NCBI GenBank assembly: GCA_964016885.1
Contig: OZ024741.1
Location: forward strand, 294,872,001 to 294,936,000
Source of the DNA: Eledone cirrhosa
Lineage: Eukaryota
DNA length: 64,000 nucleotides
Direction of reading: 5' to 3'
Shown here: positions 358 to 20,733 of the stretch, piece after piece
Layout of the letters: every line of letters starts with the position of its first letter
Numbering within the stretch: position 1 is the stretch's first letter
The notes under the pieces: model-generated
What the model was told of the DNA's origin: nothing
The model's database searches: none
The model's input: the letters and a program-made list of their open reading frames with translations, nothing else
Made by a program: the position numbers and the translations under genes

Positions 358-544
358 ATATTGTTATACTTTGGGAAAACACACGCACCAGTTGCTTTCA
401 CTTCAATTTATTATATATTTATAAATTTACAAATCTACAAACTTATTGTTTCTTATTGGCAACATGACCCTCCCAAAGTATAACAATATCGGTTTCAACA
501 CACGATTTCAGATAAAGAATCTTGCTAAACAAATTCAGAAACGA
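358..544. mobile_element. Miniature fold-back insertion of the Penelope-like family (two inverted terminal fragments only)
   Basis: 358-446 matches the minus-strand PLE terminus seen at 3481-3590 and 18665-18780 (with a deletion). 447-544 matches the plus-strand terminus at 19863-19960. Flanked by (TA)n on both sides. Confidence 0.9.
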
Positions 545-570
545 TATATATATATATATATGTATATATA

Positions 571-2750
571 CATACTTGCCATCACCGACACTGATACATA
601 CTTGCCATCACCGACACTGATAAGAAGGTAGCTTGGAAGTGTCACTATGAAAGACTACTAAATGAGGAGAATAAATGGGAGAAAGACAGTCTCCCCCATA
701 TCGACCCGATAGAGGGACCAGCAGTGTTAGTCGAGGGGAGTATAATAAGTAAGGCAATCAAGGATATGAAGACGGGTAAGGCGGCTGGGCCTTCGGAAAT
801 AGTTGCTGAGATGCTGAAGGCATCTGGCACGGTGGGACACACCATGGTCACCCGCATAGTTAACCAAGTCGTACAGAATGGGGTTGTTCCGAAGGACTGG
901 CATAGCAGCATCATCGTTAACTGTTATAAGGGTAAAGGAGACGCCCTAGATAGGAGTAACTATAGAGGCATTAAATTAATCGACCAGGTCATGAAGGTCA
1001 CGGAAAAAGTAATAGCGCAACTAATCAGAGAGAGAATTGACCTAGATGAAATGCAGTTCGGGTTTGTGTCAGGCAAAAGCACCACAGACGCTCTTTTCAT
1101 AGTACGACAACTACAGGAGAAGTACCTAGCTAAAGGTAAACCCCTCTACTTAGCTTTTGTCGACCTGGAGAAAGCCTTCGACAGAGTCCCCCGCTCCATT
1201 ATCTGGTGGGCTCTTAGAAAACTAGGCGTTGACGAATGGCTTGTGAGGGCTATACAAGCCATGTATAAAGAAACAGTCAGCAAGGTTAGAATTAACAACG
1301 AATATAGTGAAGAGTTTAGCGTAAAAGTTGGCGTCCATCAGGGCTCTGTTCTCAGCCCCCTACTATTTATTATTGCCCTTCAGGCTATAACAGAGGAGTT
1401 CAAGACAGGCTGCCCATGGGAACTCCTATACGCAGACGACCTGATACTCATAGCGGAATCAATGGCCGAGCTAGAGAAGAAATTCCAAACATGAAAGCAC
1501 GGCCTAGAGTCAAAAGGACTTAAAATTAACCTGGCTAAGACCAAAGTTCTAGTTTGTAGGAAAGAAAACAAGGCGGCGGTCCCTTCTGGGAAATGGTCGT
1601 GCTCGGTATGTAGGAAAGGCGTAGGTAGAAACTCCATTTTATGTCCTAAATGCAAAGTATGGGTGCATAAAAGATGTAGTGGGATCACAGGTAAGCTAAC
1701 TAAGAACATAGACTTTACATGTGGCCGGTGTTCTGGTGCAATAAGTAGCAGCAAGTGCCCACAAAATACTAGCTCTTTCAATTGCGCAGAGGGTTCTATA
1801 GAAATAGTGGACAGCTTCCGTTACCTGGGCGATAAAATCAGCAGTGGGGGAGGGTGCTCTGAAAGTACTGTAGCTAGAGTCAGAACTGGTTGGAAAAAGT
1901 TCAGAGAGCTTATACCACTATTAGCCGCTAAAGGGTTCTCCCTAAAAATGAAAGGCAGGTTGTACGATGCCTGCATACGAACAGCAATGTTGCATGGTAG
2001 TGAGACCTGGGCATTGTGTGCAGAGGATATACGCAGACTAGAGAGGAATGAAGCTTGCATGCTCCGCTGGATGTGTAACAGTAATATACGTGAACGGCAA
2101 AGCATAAACGAACTAAGGAAAAAATTAGAGATAAGAGGGATCAGATGTTTACTCGAGAGAAGGCTACGTTGGTATGGACACGTGATGCGCATGAAAGTCG
2201 ATAGCTGTATAACAAAGTGCAGGGCAATAAAGATAGACGGTAGCCACGGAATAGGCAGACCTAGAAAAACATGGGATGAGCTGATAAACTCCGACCTCAC
2301 ACACTTACACCTCTCCAAGACAATGTCACTGGACCGAGACCTTTGGCGGTACTCAGTAACAGAGAAGACCCGCCTTGCCAGTAGGCATCTCTAACAAAAT
2401 ACACCCCGTCCCGCCACCCCCCCCACCCTATCCACACCACCCCGTTCTATGTAAAGTTATGTTGGTGCCGCGCCATCCAGGCCGAAACAAATGAGATCGT
2501 GTAGGTGTCACGACAAAAAAACACACAGTCCACGCTGTAATGTGGCCGTGTAGGCAACACGGTAAAAACCTCCCAGACCCACACTGTAAATGTGGTTGGT
2601 GTTAGGAAGGGCAGCCAACTGTAGAAAACCTGCCAGACAGTCCTATGCGAGCAAGACAATCACTCTTGCATCATGTGGGACTACCCCCGTCCAAACCTAT
2701 GCAAGCGTGGAACACGGACGTTAAACGTTGATGATGATGATGATGATGAT
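571..2750 (+). mobile_element. RTE-clade LINE, family A, 5'-truncated pseudogenised copy (RT, PHD-like finger, 3'UTR, (GAT)n tail)
   Basis: ORFs 724-1494 and 1663-2394 carry [35 protein letters not shown] and FRYLG. A TGG>TGA stop lies at 1492-1494 relative to the copy at 58177-60570. Ends ...cggacgttaaacgtt(gat)n. 26-bp tandem duplication at the 5' junction (571-596/597-622). Confidence 0.95.
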
Positions 2751-3639
2751 ATATGTATATATATATGTATATATATATATATATATGTATATATATATGT
2801 ATATATATGTATATGTATATATATATGTATATATATATGTATATATATATGTACATATGTATGTATATGTATATATATATGTATATGTATATATATATAT
2901 ATATGTATATATATATGTATATATATATATGTATATATATATGTATATGTATAAATATATATGTATATGTATAAATATATATGTATATGTATATATATGT
3001 ATATATATATATATGTATATATATATGTATATATATATGTATATATATATATATGTATATATATATGTATATATATATATATATGTATATATATATATAT
3101 GTATATATATATATATATATATATATGTATATGTATATATATATATGTATATGTATATATATATATGTATATATATATATATGTATATATATATGTATAT
3201 GTATAAATATATATGTATATGTATAAATATATATGTATATGTATATATATGTATATGTATATATATGTATATGTATATATATGTATATGTATATATATGT
3301 ATATATATATATATGTATATATATATATGTATATATATATGTATATATATATATATATGTATATATATATGTATATATATATGTATATATATATATATAT
3401 GTATATATATATGTATATATATATGTCGTTTCTGAATTTGTTTAGCAAGATTCTTTATCTGAAATCGTGTGTTGAAACCGATATTGTTATACTTTGGGAG
3501 GGTCATGTTGCCAATAAGAAACACACGCACCAGTTGCTTTCACTTCAATTTAATTTAATATATATTTATAAATTTACAAATTTATAAATTTCTGGTTGGT
3601 TGGTTGGTTCCACAACCAGATAGTTGTTTATATATATAT

Positions 3640-3684
3640 AGTCATAGTTCTTTCGTCACACACTCTGTGACCTCTTCAGTGACT
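3640..3684 (-). ncRNA. Minimal type I hammerhead ribozyme motif, family H1 (PLE pLTR)
   Basis: Reverse complement of 6800-6844. Confidence 0.8.
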
Positions 3685-3963
3685 GGGGATTTCTTTCTTC
3701 GTTTCTGTGCCTTTCCTTTCTTCTATCCTACGCCATTTTGTTTGTGTGTGGGTTGCGTGCTCAGTTTGCGCATGCGTCACATCCGGGTGTCTGTGTGTGT
3801 TTGTGTTCATTTTTCTATTTTTCTATTTATATTTGTTTGTTTATTTATTTATTTATTGTTGGTTGGTTGTTTGTTCTATGTGTGTGTGTGTTTTCATTTT
3901 GTCTTGTGTGTGTTTTCAATTGTAAGTTGTTTATATATGTGTGTGTGTGTTTTCATTTTGTCC

Positions 3964-17770: not shown

Positions 17771-19379
17771 GTGTATGTATATATATATATATATATATAT
17801 ATATATATATATAGATATATATATATATATATATATATATATATATACACACATATGTATATATATATATATAAATATATACATATGTATGTATATATAT
17901 ATATATAAATATATACATATGTATGTATATATATATATATAAATATATACATATGTATGTATATATATATATATAAATATATACATATCTATGTATATAT
18001 ATATATATACATACATATGTATATATATATATAAATATATACATATGTATGTATATATATATATATATAAATATATACATATGTATGTATATATATATAT
18101 ATATATATATATATATATATATATATATATATATATATATATATATATATATATATATACATATGTATGTATATATATATACATATATATATACATATGT
18201 ATTTATGTATATATATATACATATATATATATGTATGTATATATATATATATATATACATATACATATGTATGTATGTATATATATATATATATATATAC
18301 ATATGTATGTATATATATATATACATATGTATGTATATATATATATATATACACACGTATGTATGTATGTATATATATATACATACATATGTATATATTT
18401 ATATATATATATATATATACATACATATGTATATATTTATATATATATATATACATATGTATGTATATATATATATATACATATGTATGTATATATATAT
18501 ATATATAAATATATACATATGTATGTATATATATATATATATATATATATATACATACATATGTATGTATATATATATATATATATATATACATACATAT
18601 GTATATATATATATACATACATATGTATGTATATATATATATATATATATATATATATATATATATATTGTTATACTTTGGGAGGGTCATGTTGCCAATA
18701 AGAAACACACGCACCAGTTGCTTTCACTTCAATTTATTATATATTTATAAATTTATAAATTTACAAATCTACAAACTTATAAGTTTCTGGTTGGTTGGTT
18801 GGTTCCACAACCAGATAGTTGTTTATATATAGTCATAGTCCTTTCGTCACACACTCTGTTTGCGCATGCGCCACATCCGGGTGTCTGTGTGTGTTTGTGT
18901 TCAAATTACAGAGGCAGTAAGCATAAAAGAATTAAAACCAAAATTAAATAGAAAATATGAGTGGAACAGCAACATCACAACTTACAATTAAGGACAAAAT
19001 GAAAACACACACACACATAGAACAAACAACTTACAATTAAGGACAAAATGAAAACACACACAAAATGAAAACACACACAGGACAAAATGAAAACACACAC
19101 AGGACAAAATGAAAACACACACACACATAGAACAAACAACCAACCAATAATAAATAAATAAATAAACAAATAGAAAAATGAACACAAACACACACAGACA
19201 CCCGGATGTGGCGCATGCGCAAACTGAGCACACAACACACACACAGAAACAAAATGGCGTAGGATAGAAGAAAGGAAAGGCACAGAAACGAAGAAAGGAA
19301 TCCCCATTTTTACAAGTTTATAAATTTATAAATTTCTGGTTGGTTGGTTGGTTCCACAACCAGATAGTTGTTTATATAT

Positions 19380-19424
19380 AGTCATAGTCCTTTCGTCACA
19401 CACTCTGTGACCTCTTCAGTGACT
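19380..19424 (-). ncRNA. Hammerhead motif H1 (GGAC stem III variant)
   Basis: Reverse complement of 19695-19739. Confidence 0.8.
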
Positions 19425-19694
19425 GGGGATTCCTCTCTTTGTTTCTGTGCCTCTCCTTTGTTCTGTCCTACGCCATTTTGTTTCTGTGTGTGTGTTGTGT
19501 GCTCAGTCTCCGCATGCGCCACATCCGGTAACATGTAAATAAGTAAATAAATAAACAAATAGATAAATGAACATAAACACACACAGACACCCGGATGTGG
19601 CGCATGCACAGACTGAGCACACAACACACACACAGAAACAAAATGGTGTAGGACAGAACAAAGGAGAGGCACAGAAACAAAGAAAGGAATCCCC

Positions 19695-19739
19695 AGTCAC
19701 TGAAGAGGTCACAGAGTGTGTGACGAAAGGACTATGACT
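19695..19739 (+). ncRNA. Hammerhead motif H1 (GGAC stem III variant)
   Basis: AGUCA-CUGAAGA-G-GUCACAgagugUGUGAC-GAAA-GGAC-UA-UGACU. Confidence 0.8.
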
Positions 19740-20733
19740 ATATATAAACAACTATCTGGTTGTGGAACCAACCAACCAACCAGAAATTTATAAGTCTGTA
19801 GATTTGTAAATTTATAAATTTATAAATATATAATAAATTGAAGTGAAAGCAACTGGTGCGTGTGTTTCTTATTGGCAACATGACCCTCCCAAAGTATAAC
19901 AATATCGGTTTCAACACACGATTTCAGATAAAGAATCTTGCTAAACAAATTCAGAAACGAAATATATATATATATATATATATATATATATATATATATG
20001 TATGTATATATATATATATATATATATATATATATATATACATACATACGTATGTATGTATGTATATATGTATGTATGTATATATGTATATATATACATA
20101 TGTATGTATATATATATATATATATATATATATATATATATATACATACATATGTATATATATATATATACATACATACATAATGTATGTATATATATAT
20201 ATATATATACATACATATGTATATATATATATATACATATGTATGTATATACATATGTATGTATATATATATATATATATATATATATATACATACATAT
20301 GTATGTATATATATATATATATATATACATATGTATGTATATATATATATATATATATATATATATATATACAAACATATGTATATATATATATATATAT
20401 ACATACATACATAATGAATGTATGTATATATATATATATATATATATATATATATATACATACATATGTATATATATATATACATATGTATGTATATATA
20501 TATATATATATATATATATATATATATATATATATATATATACATACATATGTATATATATATATACATATGTATGTATATATATATATATATATATACA
20601 TACATATGTATGTATATATATATATATATACATATGTATGTATGTATATATATATATAAATATATACATATGTATGTATATATATATATATATATATATA
20701 TATATATATATATATATATATACATATGTATAT

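Follow-up and report, generated by a model that had tools for sequence, protein, structure and literature searches.

Inverted insertions of a Penelope-like retrotransposon in Eledone cirrhosa pair one short with one long fixed end and suggest twin priming

Introduction

Penelope-like retrotransposons (PLEs) are the sister group of telomerase. They bear a tail of 30–40 bp at the start of the open reading frame (ORF), often on one end only (PMC8557442); the tail has also been called “optionally present” on one of two inverted pseudo-long terminal repeats (pseudo-LTRs), with self-priming on an antisense template as the proposed origin (PMC3846280), and Penelope of D. virilis carries a 34-bp repeat together with inverted repeats (PMC2377424). 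The origin of inverted repeats and tail has been named an open problem (PMC8557442), and the later steps are described as unvalidated (PMC11167929). Here we analyse a PLE family of Eledone cirrhosa through three insertions in a 64,000-nucleotide stretch of its genome (contig OZ024741.1, positions 294,872,001 to 294,936,000 of the forward strand; “the window” throughout) and through copies elsewhere in the assembly.

Two described systems come closest. The Poseidon element of Anolis carolinensis (PAc), studied in vitro, cuts and extends both target strands and is predicted to act as a dimer (PMC11167929). In L1 twin priming, both target overhangs prime on the same RNA, which gives a head-to-head 5' inversion (Ostertag & Kazazian 2001, as summarised in PMC9148063). 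Octopus PLEs are counted, in the accessible part of PMC13282606, without end structure.

Here we show that two-ended insertions of the E. cirrhosa family almost always join one short to one long end, both fixed within the ORF and 60 nt apart, and that either arm may be the longer. Such a pattern probably arises when the two 3' ends of a staggered target cut prime at one site each.

Results

The 3' ends of all three window insertions face outward into (TA)n, and both this orientation and the coordinates given in a preliminary description of the window are confirmed. One end of each is short (S; …AAGTATAACAATAT|ATA, at 358 on the minus, 7003 on the plus and 18665 on the minus strand) and the other long (L; …CAGAAACGA, at 544 on the plus, 3426 on the minus and 19960 on the plus strand). 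With x counted from the ATG of the element's ORF, S lies at +26 and L at +86. The element reads AATAT|CG at both positions, and copies that read through the long end show CAGAAACGAAATAT|CGTAAG there. AATAT|CG is thus the stopping point of either end, which puts them 60 nt apart and not ~55 nt as first given; AATAT, at first assigned to the short end alone, belongs to the long end as well. Each end has 4–5 nt in common with the (TA)n target. At 544 and 3426 of the window TATAT/CATAT stands in place of the final AATAT, and 14 of 100 listed L ends have the form CGA|TATA. Exact ends followed by TATA number 12,330 for S and 13,508 for L genome-wide, a ratio near 1:1. The stretch from ORF +27 to +86 constitutes the tail. 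An older diverged subfamily (L062, L090, L181 and L202) uses the same short end at +26.

Pairing was scored in 160 fetched regions around listed exact L and S ends (contig C1, 0–44 Mb), which yield 174 blocks that have one or both ends fixed, and in a second sample of 33 fetched read-through loci, three of which overlap the first; shared flanks make a few loci non-independent (L206 twice, L190/L195, L188 twice). Both ends are fixed in 91 blocks of the 160 regions, and 88 of these are L–S, two L–L and one S–S (binomial p 1e-22 against 50%), so that the tail stands on one end in 88 of the 91. One single-ended block ran off the region edge, and nine of the 82 others pair an S arm with an L arm of 11–20 nt. 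When these tiny arms are included, together with L128 (L–L) and L202 (S–S), which hand review added, the totals are 97 L–S, 3 L–L and 2 S–S (p 3e-23 against 50%); five more L–S loci recognised by hand (L069, L086, L152, L170 and L217) stand outside them. All 19 read-through loci with both ends fixed are L–S. The pairing of a long with a short end at a locus, as the preliminary description had predicted, is therefore the family's habit, and ends are neither random nor paired like with like as often as unlike.

These ratios bear on two published proposals, in which a head-to-head DNA intermediate is resolved by endonuclease (Craig et al. 2021) or is self-primed on an antisense template (Arkhipova et al. 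2013). Both sites are AT-rich, some joints coincide with natural palindromes, and the endonuclease of D. virilis reportedly requires tail DNA (PMC11167929). Two independent cuts should, however, produce L–L and S–S together as frequently as L–S, near-perfect hairpins are present at only 21 of 81 joints, and the tail ends coincide with the in vitro reverse transcriptase (RT) start sites of the anole element (PMC11167929). A DNA intermediate of this kind seems to us a poor prospect.

The rare very short arms are one-sided: tiny L arms occur in 8 of 42 S-anchored blocks and tiny S arms in 0 of 39 L-anchored blocks (p 0.006). By a hand count this bias is limited to arms under 30 nt, and up to 106 nt there are 24 L and 24 S arms, with no overall excess of short L arms such as collision would leave.

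A minimal junction in (TA)n, at which an L arm of 16 nt meets an S arm of ~33 nt, is present in 89 exact copies on many contigs (L223–L232, for example G000:C1:6716273); related loci differ slightly in their joints and hence look like recurrent events, not one amplified unit. Back-to-back insertions within one TA tract were also seen (L207:6134–6399, S–L twice; L128:595–1135, L–L then S–tiny L), and new insertions can hit the TA flanks of older ones or be duplicated with them.

Arm geometry was compared at 81 simple L–S loci, seven of the 88 being set apart as complex, and arms were called equal when their 5' ends lay within 10 nt of each other. In 38 loci it is the S arm that extends further 5' and in 22 the L arm; in the other 21 the two are equal, with loops of 0–13 nt bar one exception; lengths of unequal arms are uncorrelated (rho −0.05). 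In six of the 38 S-further loci the L arm stops within the tail and has no sequence in common with the S arm. At L047/L233, a young locus, a 36-nt L arm faces an S arm of 11.2 kb made up of tandem units that are 100% identical, which makes post-insertion deletion an unlikely source of the S-further class. At the 19 two-ended read-through loci the end of the read-through arm is S in 10, L in 8 and complex in one. Contrary to what had been expected, the long end is thus not tied to the longer arm: in insertion 1 itself the S arm extends to about −90 and the L arm only to −16.

The preliminary description had attributed the pairing to fold-back, in which priming at the long site would be followed by copy-back on the nascent cDNA and exit to the target by AATAT microhomology. 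The geometry suits 43 of the 81 simple loci, including insertion 2 with its 5/6 joint match, and identical arms are what it predicts; the short loops of the equal arms also speak for it. It requires the S arm to be nested in the L arm, however, and this is contradicted by the 38 S-further loci, by arms without any overlap (six S-further and nine tiny-L loci) and by the 36-nt L arm with its 11.2-kb partner; insertion 1, for one, cannot derive from fold-back of its long arm. Nor does exit by microhomology agree with the copies. An internal (TA)5-6 tract at x −133, a better match that the fold-back polymerase would meet first, runs into a long TA run in 2 of 4,455 copies, one of which reads on into the element, so that the tract ends one copy in 4,455 (L243 is one further end nearby). 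Microhomology is absent from 7 of 14 L-further joints, the long site is an AATAT too, and fold-back starting from an S-primed strand cannot provide the tail. As a general rule fold-back is refuted, and we hold it to be very improbable as the source of the pattern, although it could remain a minority route. Sequence of the S arm that is absent from the L arm (38 of 81 loci, and the nine tiny-L loci), along with a tail confined to L, argues instead that the second arm was primed independently, probably by the other overhang, and was not copied from the first cDNA.

Allele sharing between arms was examined at 61 loci whose arms share 40 sites or more. Of 566 family-polymorphic sites, 13 differ between the two arms of a locus, compared with a fraction of 0.429 between loci; this discordance is equal in the S-further, L-further and equal classes and lies near the 1.4–2.4% background. 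Gene conversion was considered as the cause and appears unlikely, since non-polymorphic differences amount to 1.4–2.4% within loci and 3.3% between them, and rare alleles restricted to one arm (165) outnumber those present on both (51), though some conversion is possible.

Arms also tend to end together. The 21 equal-ended loci compare with 3.2 expected and a maximum of 11 in 10,000 shuffles, and 34 of 233 arm 5' ends fall at x −260 to −221, where the flanking 20-nt bins hold 2 and 1. Equal ends and a hotspot are compatible with two polymerases that run off a common RNA end; hairpin fold-back would yield equal arms too. The hotspot, near x −240, may be the transcript start region. Around it, at x −280 to −225 of the unit, lie the motifs CCGGATGT, GCGCATGCGC and AAAATGGCG, presumably ETS-, NRF1- and YY1-like respectively, which suggest a pseudo-LTR promoter.

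Alternatively, both target ends could prime on an asymmetric dimer that carries two RNAs of one source locus, with one protomer starting at S on its RNA and the other at L. This accounts for L–S pairing and for uncorrelated arm lengths, requires no strand displacement, and fits the subfamily concordance if one locus dominates in the germ cell. Against it, so many arms have the same end point that a common RNA end is suggested, the tiny arms are confined to the L side, and an unexplained asymmetry must be invoked to avoid L–L and S–S. We consider two RNAs unlikely, though worth keeping in view.

The joints look like the scars of end-joining between two DNA ends: of 54 that were resolved, 18 contain 1–19 inserted nt, some copied from nearby sequence, and 36 show 0–4 nt of overlap (slightly inflated, because the best of many copies was taken). 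Target duplications of 12–16 bp abut both ends in seven clear cases among 88 loci scanned. The joint of insertion 2 fits either fold-back or the joining of two cDNAs.

Two loci hold sequence unlike the reference element between their arms (~210 nt at L170:5338–5549 and 115 nt at L049:6708–6823), possibly captured during joining. In another (L252:4380–4394) an arm breaks at x −3743 beside AACCCT-type, telomere-like repeats inside the insertion, while the other end halts at +40 in a (CA)n tract.

That the inversions are artefacts of assembly or library, produced by fold-back chimeric reads, is scarcely credible. The joint of the window itself, 5523/5524, was not shown by the independent runs (four tried, one of them without alignments). 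Opposite-strand joints of the family are nevertheless present in raw Illumina reads of another study, at 5822/5848 (17 reads) and 5975/5977 (13 reads) with four starts each, so that independent reads bear out family joints and not the window's own; this check covered the element up to its last 200 nt. Arms moreover differ by ~2% at non-polymorphic sites, ends are fixed at two sites, and some insertions have target duplications. Read joints listed at 5000–5524 were discarded as edge effects of ordinary copies.

Discussion

From the genomic copies we think it likely that staggered-cut 3' ends in (TA)n each prime at one AATAT, probably on a single RNA. A ribonucleoprotein (RNP), probably a dimer, would bind around the tail, and its GIY-YIG domains would cut both target strands ~12–14 nt apart to leave …ATAT-3' overhangs, each pairing with one AAUAU and priming there; because each site would be used once, L–L and S–S should be rare. 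The trailing L-primed RT would either stall in the tail, giving tiny L arms, or displace the S cDNA. Each RT would then halt on its own, or both would reach the 5' end of the shared RNA, which would give equal arms and the hotspot near −240; host end-joining would finally fuse the cDNAs at their ends, head to head. Where an insertion has a single end, only one primer may have been extended, or one arm may have been lost later. Whether twin priming, with a dimeric RNP, two RNA sites and one template, is the normal PLE route is in our judgement evenly balanced. If so, the tail would correspond to the distance between two active sites of the dimeric RNP, and a single step would account for the second junction and the one-sided tail as well as for the inverted pseudo-LTRs, with no separate mechanism for the 5' junction.

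Several observations weigh against independent priming at two sites on one RNA. The 43 simple loci in which the L arm reaches further or the arms are equal, insertion 2 among them, are also compatible with fold-back geometry, and subfamily concordance equally allows two RNAs from one source locus. Five L–L or S–S loci occur, and ~73 of the 174 blocks have only one recognised fixed end. Of the 88 loci scanned for target duplications, 13 are interrupted near the junction and lack one, six are ambiguous and 62 lie in pure TA and are uninformative. The tail region of the RNA folds no better than shuffled sequence (z −0.37). In vitro, both target strands used the same start sites, and priming is called non-homologous to the target (PMC11167929), whereas here both sites match (TA)n by 4–5 nt. 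For this element, finally, the mechanism is deduced from genome sequence.

The family shares with Penelope/Poseidon, Neptune and Naiad elements a head-to-head 5'-truncated copy, a one-ended tail at the ORF start and partial tandems, and it targets (TA)n as reported for Naiads. Its tail is longer, however (60 nt against 30–40), has AATAT|CG at both of its borders and is not tied to the longer arm, and one-sidedness is near-obligate (97 of 102) where known PLEs have it “often” or “optionally”. The asymmetry is thus known in kind, and the belief that a fixed long and short end had gone undescribed was mistaken, a one-ended tail having been published (PMC8557442, PMC3846280); what is new is the near-strict rule, the motif-bounded 60-nt tail and the evidence for two independent primings.

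PAc likewise has two RT start sites within the ORF that bracket the tail, an AT-rich target and an upstream hammerhead (a candidate motif in our element); it differs in clade type, the linker zinc finger being present here. The main text of PMC11167929 does not tie the two sites to opposite insertion ends or to inversions, and a search of its text supplements gave no match, though its Figs S1–S2 may bear on the matter. The second primer of L1 uses a variable internal site (PMC9148063), whereas both sites are fixed here. With fixed sites only 60 nt apart, the arms overlap almost fully and form long palindromes. The arms of L1 twin priming barely overlap, and inversion, unlike in L1, is the majority outcome in this PLE family. 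Our literature search, which did not reach older subscription-journal Penelope papers, found no paper proposing twin priming for PLEs.

The family supplies thousands of natural integration products. Their near-strict rule, by which one S and one L end come from the same template and either arm can be the longer, is incompatible with simple fold-back and with the two sites being used independently, and it makes twin priming directly testable in the existing in vitro PLE system. Annotators gain the true end positions of the family, and young intact copies are identified for biochemistry.

The element and other features of the window

By its protein motifs the element is an endonuclease-bearing PLE of Neptune/Nematis type; both this identity and a fixed internal start site, already proposed, are supported. 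A 33-mer at the long end has 13,642 exact copies in the 3.0-Gb genome, and 429 copies read through that end. Two of the first 20 read-through loci fetched have intact ORFs (L047, 1,318 aa; L056, 1,265 aa), and L047 is a tandem array with a period of 4,423 nt. Pseudo-LTRs formed by tandem or partial-tandem units are present, and most two-ended loci have inverted 5'-truncated arms. In L047, L045, L050, L051 and L056 the N-terminal half contains a repeat insert, rich in Asn, His and Thr and variable in length, that leaves the frame open; similar N-terminal inserts are described in Adineta Penelope families (PMC3846280).

A Pfam scan of the full ORF gave no match, while one predicted protein (P0001) matches RVT_1 at E 2.4e-4, under the curated cut-off. 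Read by eye, the ORF contains the endonuclease motif VVY…YIGET…R…EH…E…N, and a homologue (P0043) carries PF01541, which we take to be GIY-YIG. A CCHH motif (VVYSIRCTEGQCRNKNIVYIG…EH…QH), which has two Cys between GIY and YIG, and a DKG-type motif ahead of the RT in the form TDKSG were likewise recognised by eye and not by profile. The linker between RT and endonuclease, CIDKKCITC (CX4CxxC), fits the CX2-5CxxC definition of Neptune/Nematis; the linker, CCHH and DKG definitions are those of PMC8557442. The closest named protein, from Octopus vulgaris, is 68% identical (three of 63 homologues are named), and a PDB sequence search with the element protein found no match. A host protein named as a dynein regulatory complex subunit 6-like isoform (P0060) is 79% identical over 20% of the query, which suggests that a PLE fragment was exonised or mis-annotated.

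At x −172 there is a hammerhead-like core with predicted stems I and II (CUGAAGA…stem II…GAAA, stem I AGUCA/UGACU; folding z −0.92); we take CUGAAGA…GAAA to be the core consensus and treat the motif as a candidate. It is absent among the 150 of 309 Rfam matches that were listed, which are only microRNA-like matches to TA repeats.

Features of the window are collected in Table 1. The long arm of insertion 2 contains the 3' part of the ORF, from RT motifs to GIY-YIG, followed by 3' untranslated region, pseudo-LTR and tail; within this ORF a GIY-YIG-type endonuclease with CCHH spacing was identified by eye using the definitions of PMC8557442. The insertion (3.6 kb) has inverted arms of 1,480 nt with two mismatches (5528 and 6333) and a 563-nt loop between them. 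The interior of insertion 3 consists of five segments with three strand switches. Searched with the element's 3' 2.1 kb, the window holds no further copy beyond short AT-rich matches.

Table 1. Coordinates of PLE features in the window
Feature	Position	Strand	Details
Insertion 1, head-to-head pair	358..544		187 bp
Insertion 1, short-ended arm	358–~450	−	x +26 to about −90; 21-nt internal deletion
Insertion 1, long-ended arm	447–544	+	x −16 to +81
Insertion 1, tail	490..544	+	short site to long end
Insertion 2, long-ended arm	3426..5529	−	x +81 back to −2031
Insertion 2, tail	3426..3480	−	absent on other side
Insertion 2, 5'-truncated PLE ORF	3964..5529	−	RT core YVDD; CX4CxxC linker
Insertion 2, inversion joint	5524..5529		6-nt overlap, 5/6 matching
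Insertion 2, short-ended arm	5524..7003	+	x −1462 to +26
Insertion 2, AAAATGGCG motif	6745..6753	+	within arm-5'-end hotspot, x −260 to −221
Insertion 2, minimal hammerhead-like motif	6800..6844	+	mirror copy 3640–3684, −
Insertion 2, short site AATAT	6999..7003	+	ORF +22 to +26; adjoins (TA)n
Insertion 3	18665..19965		1.3 kb; S end − at 18665; L end + at 19960–19965 (CGAAATAT)
Insertion 3, complete 60-nt tail	19906..19965	+	terminates in second AATAT

A non-LTR element with RT is also present in the window, in copies at 595–2394 on the plus strand and at 12633–15218 and 58177–60606 on the minus strand, with a PHD finger after the RT in the two copies scanned that far. The stretches 597–2149 and 58425–59977 are 99% identical in opposite orientation. 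The first copy, which has an in-frame stop at 1492–1494, directly follows insertion 1 and shares its TA tract.

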